A DNA stretch of 64,000 bases from Actinomycetota bacterium (lineage in GTDB: Bacteria > Actinomycetota > CADDZG01 > WHSQ01): assembly GCA_046262355.1 (NCBI GenBank), contig JBHEMX010000092.1:677-64676 (forward strand), written 5' to 3'. How positions within the stretch are numbered: the first letter of the stretch is position 1; each line of letters starts with the position of its first letter. Shown here piece by piece: positions 58,515 through 64,000 of the stretch. Under the pieces are notes generated by a model. It was given only the letters and a program-made list of their open reading frames with translations. It had not been told where the DNA came from and did not search any database. The position numbers were made by a program, and so were the translations under genes.

Positions 58515-59678
58515 TCAGGCACAGAGCTGCAACAGCGCGCGCCTGAGTATGCGGGCCGCCGTGATGCAGTCGTCGACCGGGATCGCATCGTCGCCGATCA
58601 AGCCGGCACCGGTGAAGTGGCGTTTGCCCGGCCCGAACATAGGGCTCGGGATGCCCTTGGAGCAGGCGTACCCGGCATCGAACGCGTTGAGGCTCCAGAA
58701 CGTCTCGCCGAGCGTGCCCCGTTCGTCGCGCACCGCGTCGCGCAGGGCGCGCACTACCGGAGCGTCCTCGTCCACGATCGCCGGCAGCATCGCGGCGCCC
58801 TGCCGCACCTCTGCCGTCTCCAAGCCGTGGCCGTGAAGGTGTTGCTCGATCGCCTCGACGGCGCGCGCGGCCGTCTCTTCGGGCAGGAGGCGGCGGTCGA
58901 CCACGATCTTGACCTCTTCGGGGATCGTGTGTGGCGCGATCGGGAAGCAGGCGAACTGATAGGGCGTCGCGGTTGCAGGCCCGAGGAAGGGATGCTCGCC
59001 CGGCAGCGGAAGCGAGCGCAGCGACACGGCAACGTCGGCAGCGCTCTCGATGGGGTTGTCGCCGAGCCACGGCTGGCTCGAGTGGGCGGCCTTGCCCCTC
59101 AGGGTTATCTCGACGTCGACGCGTCCCCGGTTGCCGAGCGACACGCGCATATCCGTGCCGAAGACAACGAGTCCGTGCGTGGCGGCGATCCCGAGCTCAT
59201 CGATGATCCGCCGTGAGCCTGCGTGACTGCTGCGTCCCTCGGTGTTGACCGCGAGCCAGATCGGGCGTCGCAGGTCTCCCTCCAGGGCCTCGAGCGCGGC
59301 GAACGCCGACGCCATCGGGCCCTTGTTCTGGGTCGCGCCACGCCCCACGGCGCAGAGTCCCTCGAGACCGAGGCTCGAGCCGTCGATCAGAGATCCCTCC
59401 GCGGCTTCGTCCATCAGATTGGAGTGCTGCGAGACGATGTAGGTCTGGACCAGGATGCCGTCGTCGCCGGCGGGGCCGAAGCGGGCCGCAACGTCGCCCA
59501 TGGGATGGCGCCGGATCTCGTCGGGTCCGATCTCGTAGACGAGGGGTAACACGACATCTTCGACCGCGCGCACGATGCGCTCGTCCCCGGGCGCGATCTC
59601 GGTGGCCCCGAGGGGAACCTGTGTCGGCGTCTTCAGCAGAGACACCAATGCGGCTTCCAACCATGCTTGGTCCACCAC
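58515..59678 (-). CDS. M20-family metallohydrolase (ArgE/DapE/ACY1-like deacylase or dipeptidase)
   Basis: GTG 59678, 1 nt after the LLM stop. ...VQTYIVSQHSN...NTEGRSSHAGS...GKAAHSSQPWLGDNPIE...AFDAGY. The ORF track extends to 59717. Confidence 0.8.
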   Translation of the reverse strand: MVDQAWLEAALVSLLKTPTQVPLGATEIAPGDERIVRAVEDVVLPLVYEIGPDEIRRHPMGDVAARFGPAGDDGILVQTYIVSQHSNLMDEAAEGSLIDGSSLGLEGLCAVGRGATQNKGPMASAFAALEALEGDLRRPIWLAVNTEGRSSHAGSRRIIDELGIAATHGLVVFGTDMRVSLGNRGRVDVEITLRGKAAHSSQPWLGDNPIESAADVAVSLRSLPLPGEHPFLGPATATPYQFACFPIAPHTIPEEVKIVVDRRLLPEETAARAVEAIEQHLHGHGLETAEVRQGAAMLPAIVDEDAPVVRALRDAVRDERGTLGETFWSLNAFDAGYACSKGIPSPMFGPGKRHFTGAGLIGDDAIPVDDCITAARILRRALLQLCA

Positions 59679-59679
59679 G

Positions 59680-60666
59680 CTAGCCCTGCAAGAGGGGCAG
59701 AAGCTCATCGAGAGCAAGCTTCATCTGTCCCTCCTGGTCGAAGGTGGCGAAGCGGATGATCGGAACGTCCAATCCCTTGTCGATGTAGCCGCCGATCCGC
59801 TCCGCGACCTGGTCCGGGGTGCCGTAGGCGCCCCACGAGGTCATCGTCTCGTGGCCGACGTTGGTCGAGTAGTACTCGTCGAGGAACCGTTTGGCCTCGC
59901 GGCGCGCCGTGGGTTCGTCGCTCTGCAGGTTGACCATGAGGTGCACGGCCGACGTCATCGACTCGGGATCTCTTCCCTCGGCTGCTGCAGCGGTGCGGAT
60001 CTCGTCCCAGCGGCCTCCGAAGTCATCGGGAGAGACGACCGTCGAGAGCCACCCGTCCGCGAGCCGGCCCACCCGCTTGATCGCGCTCTCGTAGCGCTGC
60101 GGCGACAGCTTGTTGGGGTCCGGGTTGCTCGCTATCCAGATCGGACAAGGGTCCTGCACGGGCTTGGGCTCGAGATCGATGCTCGGCCACTGGAAGTGCC
60201 GGCCGGCGTGCTCGCTGGGGCCGGACCACAGAGAGCGCAGCACCTCGATGCCCTCCTCGAGTCGGCCGACGCGCTCCTGCGCGGAGACGTTCATCGCCGC
60301 GAGCTCGGCGGCGAAGTCGCCGCCACCGCGACCTGTTGGCGCGCCGAGACAGACCGCCAGCAGCGACCTTCCGTCCGAGAGGACGTCGAGGGTGGCCCAC
60401 TGGCATGCGAACAGGACGGGGTTGCGCAGGGGGAAGGTCGCGAGGCAGCAGACCCCGAGCTTCATCCGGGTCGTCCTCGCGGCGAGGGCCGAGAGTGTTG
60501 CCACGGCCTCGATCCGGGGCTTCGCTATGAGCCCATCGCCGACCCAGACGGAGTCGAATCGGTTCGAGCGCTCGGCCTCCTCGGCGAGCGCGTAGAGCTC
60601 GGCAACTGTGGTCGCTCCGAACAGCACTCCGCGGTTCGGCAGGCTCAGACCGATGCTTCTGCGCAC
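59680..60666 (-). CDS. LLM-class (luciferase-like) flavin/F420-dependent oxidoreductase
   Basis: MRRSIGLSLPNRGVLFGATTVAELYALAEEAERSNRFDSVWVGDGLIAKPR...GRSLLAVCLG. 328 aa TIM-barrel family pattern. Confidence 0.8.
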   Translation of the reverse strand: MRRSIGLSLPNRGVLFGATTVAELYALAEEAERSNRFDSVWVGDGLIAKPRIEAVATLSALAARTTRMKLGVCCLATFPLRNPVLFACQWATLDVLSDGRSLLAVCLGAPTGRGGGDFAAELAAMNVSAQERVGRLEEGIEVLRSLWSGPSEHAGRHFQWPSIDLEPKPVQDPCPIWIASNPDPNKLSPQRYESAIKRVGRLADGWLSTVVSPDDFGGRWDEIRTAAAAEGRDPESMTSAVHLMVNLQSDEPTARREAKRFLDEYYSTNVGHETMTSWGAYGTPDQVAERIGGYIDKGLDVPIIRFATFDQEGQMKLALDELLPLLQG

Positions 60667-60676
60667 GTTGCCTCCT

Positions 60677-61075
60677 TCATGTTGCGACCAAGATGCCTCC
60701 GAGCACGACGGACAGCGCGCCCACCGATTCGCTGAGCAGGAGCGCGGCGCCGACGATCGCGAACAGCGGATAGATGCTTGCTTGAACCGGAACCGACACG
60801 GAGGGGCCCAGGCGGTCGATCCCTGCGATCGCGCTTGCGCGCGCGATCGCCGGCGCCAGGAGCCCTGCTGCGGCGAGGATCGCGACGCTCGAGAGACTCA
60901 CCTCCGACGGCAGCCGGGTCGTCGTCGCCACCAGCAGCAAGAGCCAACCCGTGGCGAGAGATATCAAGTCGCCGGCCACGACGCTCGTCGACTCCACCCC
61001 GCGCTTGGACGCGATGTGGCTGCCCGCGAAGCAGAAGGCGGAGAACGCGGCGAGCGCTTCTGGTGCGGCGGTCAC
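60677..61075 (-). CDS. single-EamA-domain (half-size DMT) membrane protein
   Basis: GTG 61075, 1 nt after the DpaA-like stop. 132 aa, 4-5 TM (ALAAFSAFCFAGSHIASK..., IYPLFAIVGAALLLSE...). Confidence 0.65.
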   Translation of the reverse strand: MTAAPEALAAFSAFCFAGSHIASKRGVESTSVVAGDLISLATGWLLLLVATTTRLPSEVSLSSVAILAAAGLLAPAIARASAIAGIDRLGPSVSVPVQASIYPLFAIVGAALLLSESVGALSVVLGGILVAT

Positions 61076-61076
61076 G

Positions 61077-61961
61077 TCACCGGGCGAGCGCCGCTTCGAT
61101 GATGCGGGTGACGCCGGACCATTGCGATCGTCCCACGGTGCGCGGAGCCGATGCGCCGAGCCCGCGCGCCCAGAAACCGTCGAGTCCAAGGTCTGCAGCG
61201 GCCTCCAGGTCGATGCTGCCGGGGGGCGCCGCGAGATCGACGACGAGCGCCCCTCGAGGCAGGCAAGCGAGCAGCTCGCGCGACCCCACGTGCGCCGGCA
61301 CGGTGCTGTAGAGGACCTCGAGGGTCGCGAAGGCCTCGCTTGCTTCTTCGAGCGCGTGCGGCGTGGCCGCCAATGCGTAGGCCGCGGCGCGCGCTTCGGC
61401 GCGCCGGGCAAACACATGTACGCGAGCACCAAGCGCCAGAAGCGCTCGCGTCAGGACCTGCCCGATGCGCCCGAAGCCCACCACGCCGATGTCGGTGTTG
61501 TGGATCGTTACCGGGCTTCTCTCGATCGCGACCCCGACGGCGCCCTCCGCGATCGCCGGCGCGCGCAGCAGCATGAGCTCGGTATCGGACTCGTACTCGT
61601 GGATCGTCACTCCGGCTGCGCGCGCCGATGCCTCGAGCCGGGCGTTCGCCTTGCCGATCACCACGTGCCCATCTGCGGCCATGGCCTCGAGATGAGAGGT
61701 CTCGATGATTATCTTGGCGGGCGCGTGCGGAGCGTAGATGCTTCCATCTTGTGCGATGAGCGGCACGGGCATGATCGCGACGCGTGCCTGCGCGAGGGCC
61801 TCGGAGAGAGAGCTGCTCGGCCTCAGTCGTTGCTCACCGGGAGGATGTGCAGCACCGAAGACGCGCACGAGCGCCCCCTCTTGGGATGCGAGCACCGCCA
61901 TCTCGGTCTCTCGGGCGTCACCGCCGACGAACGCGACGGTGAGTCCCTGCCACACGCTCAC
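61077..61961 (-). CDS. dipicolinate-synthase-subunit-A-like NAD(P)-binding dehydrogenase
   Basis: GTG 61961 (GTGA overlap). LTVAFVGGDARETEMAVLASQEGALVRVFG (DpaA N-domain pattern), then DIGVVGFGRIGQVLTRALLALGARVHVFAR (2-hydroxyacid-DH-type Rossmann). Confidence 0.7.
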   Translation of the reverse strand: MSVWQGLTVAFVGGDARETEMAVLASQEGALVRVFGAAHPPGEQRLRPSSSLSEALAQARVAIMPVPLIAQDGSIYAPHAPAKIIIETSHLEAMAADGHVVIGKANARLEASARAAGVTIHEYESDTELMLLRAPAIAEGAVGVAIERSPVTIHNTDIGVVGFGRIGQVLTRALLALGARVHVFARRAEARAAAYALAATPHALEEASEAFATLEVLYSTVPAHVGSRELLACLPRGALVVDLAAPPGSIDLEAAADLGLDGFWARGLGASAPRTVGRSQWSGVTRIIEAALAR

Positions 61962-63046
61962 GCAGCCTCTTCGATCAGCGCCTTGAGTGAGTCTCGATCG
62001 CATCCAACGATCCCGAGCTTGCGTTCGTTGAGTCCTTCTTGTCTGTAGGAACGCCCGGTGATCGTCTCGGCGAGCTGGATGAGCGCGTCCGTGACCGGCA
62101 TGGTCACGCCTGCGATACGAGCGAGTGCTGCAAGTGGCACGAGCCCGAACGCGATGTCTTCATGAAGGTAGCGATGATCGAGGGAGGAAGGGGCCTGTAT
62201 GGAAGCGTTGGCTGCACCCAGCCTTACCGCGCTCGCCAGATCTCCCTCTCGGGCGGACGAGGCATCCGCGGTTCCGATCGCCGCCATCGTGGCCTCGAGC
62301 GGGGGCAGCTCGAAGCCGAAGGAGCGCCCCACCGAGCATCGTTCTTCGTCGAGCGCGCGCATCGTCTTAGCAACCGCAGGCGTGACTCCCTCGGAGTAGA
62401 AGCGGAAGCTTCCTCGAGAGCTCTCGATCCACGCGGATCCCAGGACCATGCCCGGAGGATGCAGCATCATGTTGACGTCAGAGAGCCATGCCTCGATGGG
62501 GTTCGAGACCTCGACCCCCCCGGAGAACAGCCTGCCGGCGAACGTTGCAAGCTCTCGGTTCCTCGGGCTGGTTGCGAGTGGGATGGACCGGGCGCGCAGG
62601 TAGATGTCGACCGATCCTGGAGCGAGCGAGCGGCACACGTGCGTCAAGGTGCCGAACTCCGCGATCGGTGGACACACGGCGCGGTGCTCGGCGAAGACCC
62701 GACGGACGTGCAACGAGCCGCACATGTGGCCCGGGTCGAGGATGAGCGGCGTGCGGGCGCGATGTTTCGCGAGAGAGGCGGCGACCGGGCCGTGCGCCGT
62801 CGCGGGCAGCACGACCACGATGGCCTCCGCGTCGGAGATGGCCTCGGCGAAGTCCGTCGAGGTCTGCGCGATGGGCACGAGGCGGTCACCGAGCGCACCT
62901 TTGATCGCTATGCCGCGCCGGTCCCTGATCGGGCGCAGGGGCTCGTGGCTGCGATTGAAGAGGTGAACCTCGTGGCCCTCCAGGGCAAGGTCGGCGGCTG
63001 CTGCGAGGCCTCCGCTGCCCGCCCCCAGGACCGTCACGCGCGTCAC
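61958..63046 (-). CDS. NAD(P)-dependent opine dehydrogenase family protein (octopine/nopaline DH-like)
   Basis: MTRVTVLGAGSGGLAAAADLALEGHEVHLF. The mid/C-terminal HPPGMVLGSAWIES...FYSEGVTPAVAKTMRALDEE...LHEDIAFGLVPL matches the opine-DH helical domain. GTGA overlap with the upstream gene. Confidence 0.75.
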   Translation of the reverse strand: MTRVTVLGAGSGGLAAAADLALEGHEVHLFNRSHEPLRPIRDRRGIAIKGALGDRLVPIAQTSTDFAEAISDAEAIVVVLPATAHGPVAASLAKHRARTPLILDPGHMCGSLHVRRVFAEHRAVCPPIAEFGTLTHVCRSLAPGSVDIYLRARSIPLATSPRNRELATFAGRLFSGGVEVSNPIEAWLSDVNMMLHPPGMVLGSAWIESSRGSFRFYSEGVTPAVAKTMRALDEERCSVGRSFGFELPPLEATMAAIGTADASSAREGDLASAVRLGAANASIQAPSSLDHRYLHEDIAFGLVPLAALARIAGVTMPVTDALIQLAETITGRSYRQEGLNERKLGIVGCDRDSLKALIEEAA

Positions 63047-64000
63047 AGAGCGTAGGTCCTGAGCTTGTCCTCAGCGACCTCGACCCCGAGTCCGGGGCCC
63101 TCGGGGACGAGCACGCTCCCGTCCTTCAGGACGAACGGATCGCGCACGATGTCGTCGGTGTAGTAGTTCCCCGCGATGCCGCGCGACGCGTGCTCCGGAG
63201 CCGAGACCGGACAGACGCTCGGCAACGACGCTATCGGTGTCGCCGCCCCCAGGTGAAGGTTGGCGGCGTTGCCGATGCCCATCTCGATCGACCCACCGAT
63301 GTCGCACATGAAACCGAGTGCCGCCGCAGCCTCGGCCTGCTGGCGCGCGCGGAAGAGCCCTCCGGGCTTGGTGACGTAGAGCGAGAACGCCTCGGCCGCC
63401 TCGAGGCTCGCCAGCTCGACGATGTCCTGCAGTGTCCACGCCGACTCATCGGCCATGACGGGGATCGATATCCGGCGCGCCACAGCAGCCAGCGCGCGTG
63501 CTCCGGCGACGGGTTGCTCGCAGAGGAAGATCGCCGCCTCGTCGATCATCCGCTGGGTGGTGCGCACCGCTTCGCTGATCGTGGGGTAACCCTCGTTCGC
63601 ATCGACCCTTATCTGGACGCCCTCGGCGAGCCGCTCTCGCAAGCGGCGGACGAGCCGGACGTCGCGCTCCGCATCCAGGCCGGTCTTGACCTTGATCGTT
63701 CGGATCCCCTCACCCACCGCGGTCTCGGCTTCGTCCAGCGCGTCGTCTTCGTCCATGATCCCCAGCGAGTGACACACCGTGATCCGGTCTCGGACGTGGC
63801 CGCCGAGGAGGGTTGCCACCGGGACCTCGAGCATCTTGCCGGCGAGGTCGAAACAGGCGATGTCCAGGGCCGCCTTGGCGTAGGGGTGGCCCTTGACGAC
63901 GGCGTCCATGCGCGCGTGCAACACGGTCGGCTCGAGCGGCGAGCAACCCTCGACGGCGGGCCACAGATGGCGTTCGACAAGGTGCTGCGCGGTCTCCGGC
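63043..64000 (-). CDS. enolase-superfamily enzyme, MLE subgroup (racemase/epimerase/cycloisomerase type); 5' end beyond window
   Basis: IKVKTG (KxK), RVDANEGY, FLCEQP, VMADES (metal D/E/D), LYVTKPGG (second Lys). The frame stays open to base 64000. Confidence 0.8.
   Translation of the reverse strand, partial: PETAQHLVERHLWPAVEGCSPLEPTVLHARMDAVVKGHPYAKAALDIACFDLAGKMLEVPVATLLGGHVRDRITVCHSLGIMDEDDALDEAETAVGEGIRTIKVKTGLDAERDVRLVRRLRERLAEGVQIRVDANEGYPTISEAVRTTQRMIDEAAIFLCEQPVAGARALAAVARRISIPVMADESAWTLQDIVELASLEAAEAFSLYVTKPGGLFRARQQAEAAAALGFMCDIGGSIEMGIGNAANLHLGAATPIASLPSVCPVSAPEHASRGIAGNYYTDDIVRDPFVLKDGSVLVPEGPGLGVEVAEDKLRTYAL

Follow-up and report, generated by a model that had tools for sequence, protein, structure and literature searches.

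Opine dehydrogenases join an amino acid to a 2-oxo acid by reductive condensation or split such a product again by oxidation, and members of the family make or oxidize a D-configured alpha-carbon that bears a carboxylate and a secondary nitrogen. The cnt operons for staphylopine and pseudopaline pair such an enzyme with a racemase, the DapF-like CntK, and with an EamA or MFS exporter. For N-(1-D-carboxyethyl)-L-norvaline dehydrogenase (CENDH) of Arthrobacter sp. 1C (Protein Data Bank (PDB) entry 1BG6), we know of no physiological role. Here we describe a gene cluster at the end of a 64,000-nt stretch of DNA from an uncultured soil member of the Actinomycetota (contig JBHEMX010000092.1; the whole stretch is called the window below), in which a relative of CENDH is encoded between an enolase-superfamily enzyme of the MLE subgroup and a Rossmann dehydrogenase that resembles DpaA. 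Judged from its gene content, the cluster most likely breaks down a nitrogen-containing carboxylic acid, and the predicted trio of MLE protein, opine dehydrogenase (OpDH), and DpaA-like protein recurs across five or more bacterial phyla. The cluster shares an enzyme of the opine dehydrogenase family with the cnt operons and differs from them in its enolase-superfamily epimerase, its NMT1-type importer, and its catabolic-type regulators. An earlier note on this DNA had remarked that it shows no nicotianamine-synthase-like gene; none resembling CntL or nicotianamine synthase is present either among the Pfam-annotated genes between 48 and 64 kb of the window or among those of the syntenic loci.

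Read on the minus strand with its table of open reading frames, the region 58515−64000 holds six co-directional genes. All of the genes, overlaps, and gaps that the earlier note had listed are present, and the family call of each gene is borne out by Pfam and NCBIfam:

63043 to beyond 64000, minus strand: MLE-subgroup enzyme of the enolase superfamily, with its 5′ end cut by the window edge (Pfam MR_MLE_C, 3.5e-44)
61958−63046, minus strand: opine-dehydrogenase-family oxidoreductase (OpDH) with a predicted preference for NADP(H) (Pfam PF02317, 131.7 bits)
61077−61961, minus strand: DpaA-like Rossmann dehydrogenase, coupled to OpDH (Pfam DpaA_N, 75 bits)
60677−61075, minus strand: single-repeat EamA (drug/metabolite transporter, DMT) membrane protein of 132 aa (Pfam EamA, 31 bits)
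59680−60666, minus strand: luciferase-like (LLM) oxidoreductase, probably F420-dependent (Pfam Bac_luciferase, 148 bits)
58515−59678, minus strand: M20-fold protein with a noncanonical metal site (PF07687, M20_dimer, 56 bits; PF01546, Peptidase_M20, 39 bits)

The MLE and OpDH genes share a GTGA stop/start overlap at 63043−63046, and the OpDH and DpaA-like genes share another at 61958−61961. The GTG start of the EamA gene lies a single nucleotide (61076) beyond the DpaA-like stop; the 10-nt gap that follows this gene holds an AGGAGG, with the LLM gene starting at 60666, and one more nucleotide (59679) lies between the LLM stop and the GTG start of the M20 gene, which ends at 58515. No promoter- or terminator-like site inside 57400−64000 rises above shuffle expectation, which fits a single transcript. 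From the overlaps and the lack of internal promoter or terminator signal, we judge the operon and the translational coupling of its genes to be real. Given that the same gene order is repeated in relatives at 51−77% amino acid identity, it is far beyond chance; rather than being scattered, the genes keep this order in the related loci that we label L001, L004, L007, L009, L051, L097, and L098. What did not hold of the proposed six-gene operon is its extent, as the six genes belong to one arm of an island that has two arms and covers about 16 kb, and that arm starts outside the window.

The assignment of OpDH is genuine. The protein scores 131.7 bits against PF02317 (Octopine_DH), for which the cut-off is 30, carries an N-terminal Rossmann fold, and aligns over its full length with Arthrobacter CENDH (residues 5−358, E = 4.5e-44). 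Residues H196, R292, and D297 are invariant in 26 homologs and align with the NxxxHP and R-Y-x-x-E-D motifs of CENDH. In octopine dehydrogenase (OcDH) and CENDH, the catalytic His and the Arg...Asp pair bind and activate the alpha-carboxy-imine. A ketopantoate reductase or a glycerol-3-phosphate-dehydrogenase-type enzyme, both of which had been raised as what the protein might really be, can thus be ruled out. OpDH and CENDH are nevertheless divergent (154 bits over ∼350 aligned residues). In place of the acidic, NAD-type AWDID loop of CENDH, the cofactor loop of OpDH reads LFNRS, with an Arg that is nearly invariant in the family (NRS against DID), and we therefore predict that OpDH uses NADP(H). 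The two also differ in setting, the window-type OpDH always being embedded with an MLE gene and usually with a DpaA-like partner.

The DpaA-like protein shares the DpaA_N and Rossmann domains of DpaA/SpoVFA, aligns end to end with the DpaA structures 2RIR and 3D4O, and belongs to a family that carries the public "DpsA" label. However, it scores below both DpaA/DpsA equivalog cut-offs (194 vs 261 for NF006162 and 169 vs 319.65 for TIGR02853), and its partner is OpDH; a DpaB flavoprotein partner was found neither in the window island nor in the syntenic loci with Pfam-called genes nor in any genomic context examined for the family. Taken together, the scores and the missing partner leave the annotation "dipicolinate synthase subunit A" unsupported. 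The window protein also lies outside any sporulation context, and its family occurs in Proteobacteria, Verrucomicrobiota, and Chloroflexota, which to our knowledge are not endospore formers making dipicolinate; nor do we know of dipicolinate production in Aminobacter, Phyllobacterium, or Shinella. We note that among proteins P0241−P0360 nearly every named DpaA-like member is labeled "dipicolinate synthase subunit A/DpsA", and that one, P0253, is labeled "serine carboxypeptidase". A dip cluster for dipicolinate catabolism (PMC11472048) was also considered; its first enzyme is a monooxygenase, and it offers no set of genes that matches.

The translation of the MLE gene contains every motif that had been quoted in support of the MLE subgroup, namely IKVKTG (the KxK element, which the subgroup has at the end of strand 2), DANEGY, EQP, and ADES (the D/E/D metal ligands), and VTKPGG (the second Lys, that of strand 6), and with the MR_MLE_C match this assignment stands. 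Enzymes of the subgroup with two lysines invert alpha-carbons that bear a carboxylate and a secondary nitrogen. The best structural relatives come from the same group, the closest PDB match being 2P88 (5e-44), which we take to be the N-succinyl-Arg/Lys racemase of B. cereus. None of the NCBIfam equivalog or subfamily models was reached (score/cut-off: 192/335, 126/500, 93.5/200.65, and 72/400), with the caveat that the query is ∼60 N-terminal residues short at the window edge, which lowers the scores somewhat. Against the two L-Ala-D/L-Glu epimerase models the protein scores 81 and 42 bits, the cut-offs being 500 and 343, so the connection to murein-peptide recycling that had been drawn for this gene is weak. 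The partners of the window protein, OpDH, the DpaA-like protein, and a tautomerase-VOC fusion encoded upstream in relatives, match those of no characterized member of the subgroup.

A tblastn survey returned 87 non-redundant loci with a homolog of the window OpDH. Of the 83 loci with enough space for a DpaA-like gene, 67 have one; for the MLE gene the figure is 65 of 79. A 4-oxalocrotonate tautomerase (4-OT)-type gene is found in 65/87 and an M24 hydrolase gene in ∼58. The DpaA-like start overlaps the OpDH stop, with 4 nt shared in 30 loci and 11 nt shared in 9, and nearly all of the others lie within 48 nt, so that the two dehydrogenases form a recurrent and mostly overlapping pair across genomes. 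The loci span Actinomycetota, Alpha-, Beta-, and Gammaproteobacteria, Opitutales, Dehalococcoidia, and Vicinamibacterales, and they also occur on plasmids of Aminobacter, Phyllobacterium, and Shinella. The minimal form, in L003, consists of genes for a GntR regulator, a tautomerase-VOC fusion, and the MLE, OpDH, and DpaA-like proteins. A 591-aa OpDH+DpaA "fusion" (P0082; Octopine_DH + DpaA_N) was set aside as a probable frameshift artifact, because its contig, L004, is full of split genes (MLE, LLM, M24, and a thiamine diphosphate (ThDP) enzyme among them); no such fusion occurs among the best 120 DpaA-like matches. Three contigs of metagenome-assembled genomes (MAGs) labeled Chitinophaga pinensis (L035), Bordetella parapertussis (L072), and Klebsiella pneumoniae (L082) carry a variant with TctC and xanthine-dehydrogenase (XDH)-type genes that is otherwise seen in environmental Betaproteobacteria, and these labels look unreliable.

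The LLM and M20-like genes behave as a separate unit. They are always neighbors, and in L095 and L096 they occur without the OpDH module; in L091 the M20 gene is accompanied by genes for a gamma-glutamyltranspeptidase (GGT), an ornithine cyclodeaminase/mu-crystallin (OCD) family enzyme, and a TctABC transporter; and in L090 an Opp-type importer (SBP_bac_5) stands between the LLM−M20 pair and the OpDH module. A metagenome scan with the M20 protein found only four loci. This separate occurrence suggests that the six-gene operon is a clade-specific splice of two modules, and we propose that the first, (tautomerase-VOC)−MLE−OpDH−DpaA-like, is the widespread functional core, and that the second comprises the LLM oxidoreductase and the noncanonical M20 protein.

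Both the M20 and the EamA proteins depart from the textbook members of their families. The M20 protein is matched by both the catalytic and the dimerization domain, and in comparison with E. coli DapE/ArgE it keeps the equivalents of His66 and of Glu133, the general base. The bridging D99 is replaced by Q and E134 by G, however, and E162 and H348 are not conserved, so that one of the five metal ligands is kept. The loss is common to the four orthologs in the DapE/ArgE alignment, and an ortholog-only alignment extends it to the frameshifted L004 copy and to the covered part of the partial L005 copy; the best PDB match reaches 1e-5 only. With most metal ligands gone, it probably does not act as a canonical deacylase or dipeptidase, the role that had been considered for it, and a conserved M20 fold without a metal site is an enzymological curiosity in its own right. 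The EamA protein has one repeat, whereas a full EamA/DMT transporter has two in tandem (10 transmembrane helices). It aligns to residues 2−135 of a 303-aa full-length EamA protein encoded at the same position in L007, and the gene is missing in L001 and L051. What had been described as a "half-EamA" is therefore a truncated version of a gene that is full-length in relatives. For the LLM protein the best NCBIfam match is TIGR03619 (132 bits; cut-off 166.9), and its top matches are all F420-type LLM families, each under its cut-off.

The minus-strand arm is one side of a larger arrangement that is kept, in its two-armed form, in at least seven further loci (the seven listed above), with L005 as a partial copy of the minus arm. 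In L007, L009, and L098 the gene order is exactly that of the window and continues upstream with the tautomerase-VOC fusion, a GntR/FCD regulator, and a further M24 gene; the window end therefore cuts the operon, and the genes upstream of the window MLE gene are predicted from L007 and L009. L097 starts within OpDH, and the rest of its island matches the window. In our delineation the minus arm converges on an equally compact and equally conserved plus arm, the whole being a ∼16-kb island in which the six genes are the distal part of the minus arm. Its remaining predicted genes in the window are as follows:

57489−58505, plus strand: OCD family enzyme (Pfam 1.5e-58; below all NCBIfam equivalog cut-offs)
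56280−57488, plus strand: M24 hydrolase (Creatinase_N + Peptidase_M24), with prolidases as the nearest structures (7e-20)
55199−55726 (alpha) and 55723−56283 (beta), plus strand: split ThDP-dependent decarboxylase (Pfam TPP_enzyme_N, TPP_enzyme_C)
54198−55202, plus strand: homoserine-dehydrogenase-like (HSD-like) oxidoreductase (Pfam Homoserine_dh, 2.2e-40; below NCBIfam cut-offs)
52688−54241, plus strand: GGT-family hydrolase (Pfam, 425 bits)
49709−52653, plus strand: NitT/TauT-type ABC importer with ATPase, permease, and NMT1-type substrate-binding protein, kept in L001, L051, and L097
49098−49490, start approximate, minus strand: half-size TSUP (TauE/SafE) membrane protein of ∼130 aa (Pfam TauE profile positions 2−111 of 237)
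48344−49060, plus strand: GntR/FCD transcription regulator, outermost in the plus arm (Pfam GntR + FCD), with orthologs in L004 and L097

The OCD stop lies 9 nt from the convergent M20 stop, and the OCD gene is syntenic in all relatives of the window clade. Ectoine hydrolase and creatinase structures are farther from the window M24 protein than prolidases are. For the ThDP-dependent decarboxylase the best NCBIfam models are those of sulfopyruvate decarboxylase alpha and beta (TIGR03845, 93 vs a cut-off of 148; TIGR03846, 107 vs 221.5), and both scores fall short of an assignment as ComDE. Both ThDP genes are missing between the M24 and HSD-like genes of L098 (12211−14500), where the island is otherwise complete, which indicates that the decarboxylase is dispensable for the island. 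The GGT gene is present in the window, L007, L009, L097, and L098 and missing in L001 and L051. The half-TSUP gene is flanked by the outer GntR gene on one side and the ABC ATPase gene on the other, and a 65%-identical copy at the same position in L097 (13522−13788) shows that it did not arise by random truncation. The genes secY and rpoA (38889−44701) lie a few kilobases upstream, placing the island in a core chromosomal region of this MAG.

Further information on the core comes from the genes that accompany it elsewhere. A hydantoinase-like amidohydrolase gene stands directly 3′ of the DpaA-like gene in 37 of the 38 loci having one, and the best structural match of this protein is L-hydantoinase (1GKR, 8e-71). 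Such genes are confined to DpaA-positive loci (40/69 vs 0/18 of the DpaA-negative ones), whereas OCD genes are commoner in DpaA-negative loci (9/18 vs 8/69). This split suggests that the DpaA-like and OCD enzymes fill an equivalent, ketimine-type redox role. All 18 DpaA-negative loci have an MLE gene, 17 an M24 gene, 15 a TctC gene, 9 an OCD gene, and 7 a gene for the large subunit of an XDH-type molybdenum hydroxylase; hydroxylases of this type recur in the relatives, as do deaminase-like amidohydrolases (with matches to methylthioadenosine/S-adenosylhomocysteine (MTA/SAH) deaminase, atrazine chlorohydrolase, 8-oxoguanine deaminase, and guanine deaminase), isochorismatase-VOC fusions, cytosine-deaminase genes, RidA, a CobW-type GTPase, NMT1-type and TctC binding proteins, and GntR regulators. 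Taken as a whole, this gene content indicates that the relatives break down a carboxylate rich in nitrogen, and that many variants hydroxylate a ring, deaminate, and hydrolyze a cyclic amide on the way.

When the window and 26 related loci were scanned for riboswitches, the window clade gave no match, and the sole relevant matches are two glycine aptamers of ∼61 bits, in L085 (7441−7544) and L086 (10258−10360). The L085 aptamer lies upstream of genes for DadA, a D-amino-acid dehydrogenase, and malate synthase G that are inserted between the amidohydrolase and OpDH genes; the L086 aptamer occupies the equivalent gap, where the incomplete PLSDB gene table shows almost nothing, and the insertion is missing from the otherwise identical Shinella cluster (L087). 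The association of a glycine riboswitch with DadA and malate synthase implies small amino-acid or glyoxylate products. The L085 cluster, OpDH−DpsA−amidohydrolase−tautomerase−isochorismatase−GntR−RidA, is carried on the conjugative plasmid pAA03 of Aminobacter aminovorans. Two Tn7-like TniQ/TniB/Mu-transposase sets with the same protein accessions lie on either side of it (3156−6511 and 21463−24818), which suggests a composite mobile catabolic element. On the alphaproteobacterial plasmids of L086 (26361−28999) and L087 (26406−28999), pntAB genes for NAD(P) transhydrogenase come right after the ABC transporter genes of the cluster; this could fit an NADPH demand of the pathway or be a coincidence. 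Two other riboswitches probably belong to neighboring genes, a thiamine pyrophosphate (TPP) riboswitch in L043 (3462−3572, minus strand), 6.5 kb upstream of the Leucobacter zeae cluster, and a c-di-AMP riboswitch in L024 (19581−19721), 8.5 kb downstream of the cluster of Actinomadura sp. KC216.

The GntR/FCD regulators at both ends and the importer that depends on a substrate-binding protein suggest that the island is degradative, and we count the conjugative-plasmid setting between transposase copies in related clusters as a further catabolic signature. Where the earlier note had left open whether an opine-like compound or a D-amino-acid peptide is made or degraded, the regulator pair, the importer, and the hydrolases and hydroxylases of relatives speak for degradation and against synthesis. 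The reading that we favor, tentatively and at somewhat less than even chances, is that the GntR/FCD-controlled island would degrade an imported N-substituted alpha-imino acid, most probably a cyclic one (an N-heterocycle-2-carboxylate). The cyclic part of this proposal draws on the gene order in relatives, in which two NADP-type reductases and then a hydantoinase mirror the succession of dihydropyrimidine dehydrogenase and dihydropyrimidinase. OCD/mu-crystallin, F420-dependent LLM, and DpaA enzymes all provide precedents for action on cyclic imine-2-carboxylates.

In such a pathway, the ABC system would import the substrate, and the M24, GGT, or M20-like hydrolases could cut a C−N bond to expose the imino acid. 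The MLE enzyme would then invert the alpha-carbon by means of its two lysines, matching the D-configured carboxyalkyl center that opine-dehydrogenase-family enzymes handle. OpDH and the coupled DpaA-like protein may transfer hydride twice in succession, with NADP(H) as cofactor, at the C-alpha−N bond or beside it, and so interconvert the amine, imine, and enamine levels, and the tautomerase-VOC fusion may deal with imine/enamine or enol/keto tautomers. Ring opening would fall to the hydantoinase-type enzyme encoded after DpaA in most relatives; in the window clade the M24 enzymes are the other candidates for C−N hydrolysis, and the LLM−M20 pair occupies the slot after DpaA, which we offer as a positional observation only. 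Finally, OCD, the ThDP-dependent decarboxylase, and the HSD-like enzyme could turn the resulting amino or 2-oxo acid into central metabolites.

Several observations weigh against this proposal. The idea of a heterocyclic substrate is built on cyclic amidohydrolases and a molybdenum hydroxylase, all of which are missing from the window clade itself; the substrate-binding protein of this clade is no ortholog of those in the broad family; and the two modules, found apart elsewhere, may serve different substrates. All island proteins score under the NCBIfam equivalog cut-offs that would assign them a specific function, and even the closest structures are distant ones. The Opp-type peptide/opine substrate-binding protein of L090 agrees equally well, or better, with a substrate that is an opine or a linear, peptide-like compound. 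That importer, located between the modules, is also one of the arguments for a pathway that degrades a linear opine, N-(carboxyalkyl)-amino acid, or aminopolycarboxylate of the nicotianamine, phytosiderophore, or staphylopine type, in which OpDH, the DpaA-like protein, and OCD would each cleave one secondary-amine linkage by oxidation to give an amino acid and a 2-oxo acid, the MLE enzyme would epimerize L,L to D,L forms, and the ThDP and HSD-like enzymes would consume the products. Such a pathway would draw on OpDH as a bona fide relative of CENDH and on the several "opine-type" C−N oxidoreductase families in one island, and the HSD-like enzyme would suit fragments of the homoserine or aspartate-semialdehyde type. 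The NADP-type cofactor loop favors a reductive role, however; a linear substrate has no need for a cyclic amidohydrolase after OpDH−DpaA, for recurrent deaminases, or for XDH-type hydroxylases, and most importers belong to the NMT1 or TctC types. We regard this alternative as unlikely.

Still less probable, in our view, is that there is no single pathway and that independent modules (MLE−OpDH−DpaA; LLM−M20 with OCD and GGT; ThDP−HSD, perhaps for a sulfonate) are packed together in an actinobacterial clade. The separate occurrences in L003, L090, L091, and L095, the missing ThDP genes of L098, and a plus arm with an SsuA-like binding protein, a ComDE-like decarboxylase, and a TauE-like half-transporter are what one would expect of such packing, but the full two-armed layout is kept at the identities given above in at least seven loci, the stop/start overlaps span module boundaries, one importer serves the whole island, and the sulfonate-family matches all lie well under their cut-offs. 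The plus arm by itself may still handle a sulfonate, given these three components, although every model concerned stays below its cut-off and L098 does without the decarboxylase. The joint presence of MLE, M24, M20, and GGT proteins would also suit salvage of D-amino-acid or gamma-glutamyl peptides (murein or poly-gamma-glutamate fragments, or Xaa-Pro), with the MLE protein as epimerase, the M24, M20, and GGT proteins as peptidases, and the dehydrogenases as peripheral; 2P88 as the nearest MLE structure, the prolidase-like M24 proteins, and the Opp-type importer of L090 point the same way. We consider this quite improbable in view of the epimerase-model scores, the M20 protein without most of its metal ligands, and the lack of any role for the most conserved pair, OpDH−DpaA, or for the tautomerase-VOC fusion. 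Synthesis of an opine-type metallophore or compatible solute, in which OpDH would condense an amine and a 2-oxo acid with NADPH and EamA would export the product, has the NADP-type loop, the EamA gene within the operon, and the precedent of the cnt operons in its favor. With no CntL-like or other amine-building gene, an EamA gene that is truncated in the window and missing in two relatives, binding-protein-dependent importers, GntR/FCD regulators, and relatives that carry hydrolases and hydroxylases on catabolic plasmids, it is highly improbable.

The degradation of a cyclic imino acid can be taken a step further, into an idea that we hold to be doubtful but worth stating. OpDH and the DpaA-like protein might be the two components of a hitherto unrecognized reductase that uses NADPH to act on N-heterocyclic 2-carboxylates and would parallel dihydropyrimidine dehydrogenase in function, though free of flavin, and together with the MLE epimerase and the tautomerase-VOC fusion might constitute a widespread reductive route for orotate-, picolinate-, or pterin-carboxylate-like acids in at least five phyla, in which the actinobacterial clade would have swapped the hydantoinase for an F420-dependent LLM enzyme and a metal-site-less M20 protein. 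The likeness to reductive pyrimidine catabolism and hydantoin utilization includes the amidases (isochorismatase-family or M20) nearby. OpDH and the DpaA-like protein are, however, unrelated to the flavin/Fe−S dihydropyrimidine dehydrogenase, the MLE and tautomerase-VOC proteins are extra, and the hydantoinase is missing from the window clade. Ectoine catabolism (EutD/DoeA of the M24 family and EutC of the OCD family) resembles the plus arm in that the M24 (Creatinase_N) and OCD genes adjoin and both have subthreshold matches to ectoine models. It differs in the level of those scores (67−70 vs 575−613 and 167 vs 472), in having EutA, EutB, DoeB, and DoeD, none of which is found here, and in its type of transporter. 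Sulfonates (tauropine, cysteate), ectoine, creatinine, hydroxyproline, purines, folate/pterin, and nicotianamine were each tried as substrates; each covers some of the genes and none the conserved core, and the specific models all fall below cut-off.

In the literature on combinations of opine dehydrogenase, DpaA/DpsA, enolase, hydantoinase, isochorismatase, ectoine, and pyrroline-2-carboxylate, no characterized counterpart was found. The combination had struck the earlier note as unfamiliar and it does lack a recognized counterpart, as no characterized locus, NCBIfam equivalog, close PDB entry, or paper matched it. The superfamilies are known ones in the familiar arrangement of a catabolic gene island, and as far as our searches show, the MLE−OpDH−DpaA-like trio and the ligand-less M20 protein have not been described.

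If our reading is correct, these findings would give bacterial CENDH-type opine dehydrogenases their first physiological context and would add a new function to the MLE subgroup. They would also correct the "dipicolinate synthase subunit A/DpsA" label on nearly all of the closest named homologs of the DpaA-like protein, including those in the annotated genomes of Aminobacter, Phyllobacterium, and Shinella. The module is testable in cultured carriers, among them Pseudarthrobacter sp. P1, Aminobacter aminovorans, Shinella, Phyllobacterium, Leucobacter, and Actinomadura, and it could reveal an unrecognized route by which soil and freshwater bacteria turn over organic acids rich in nitrogen.

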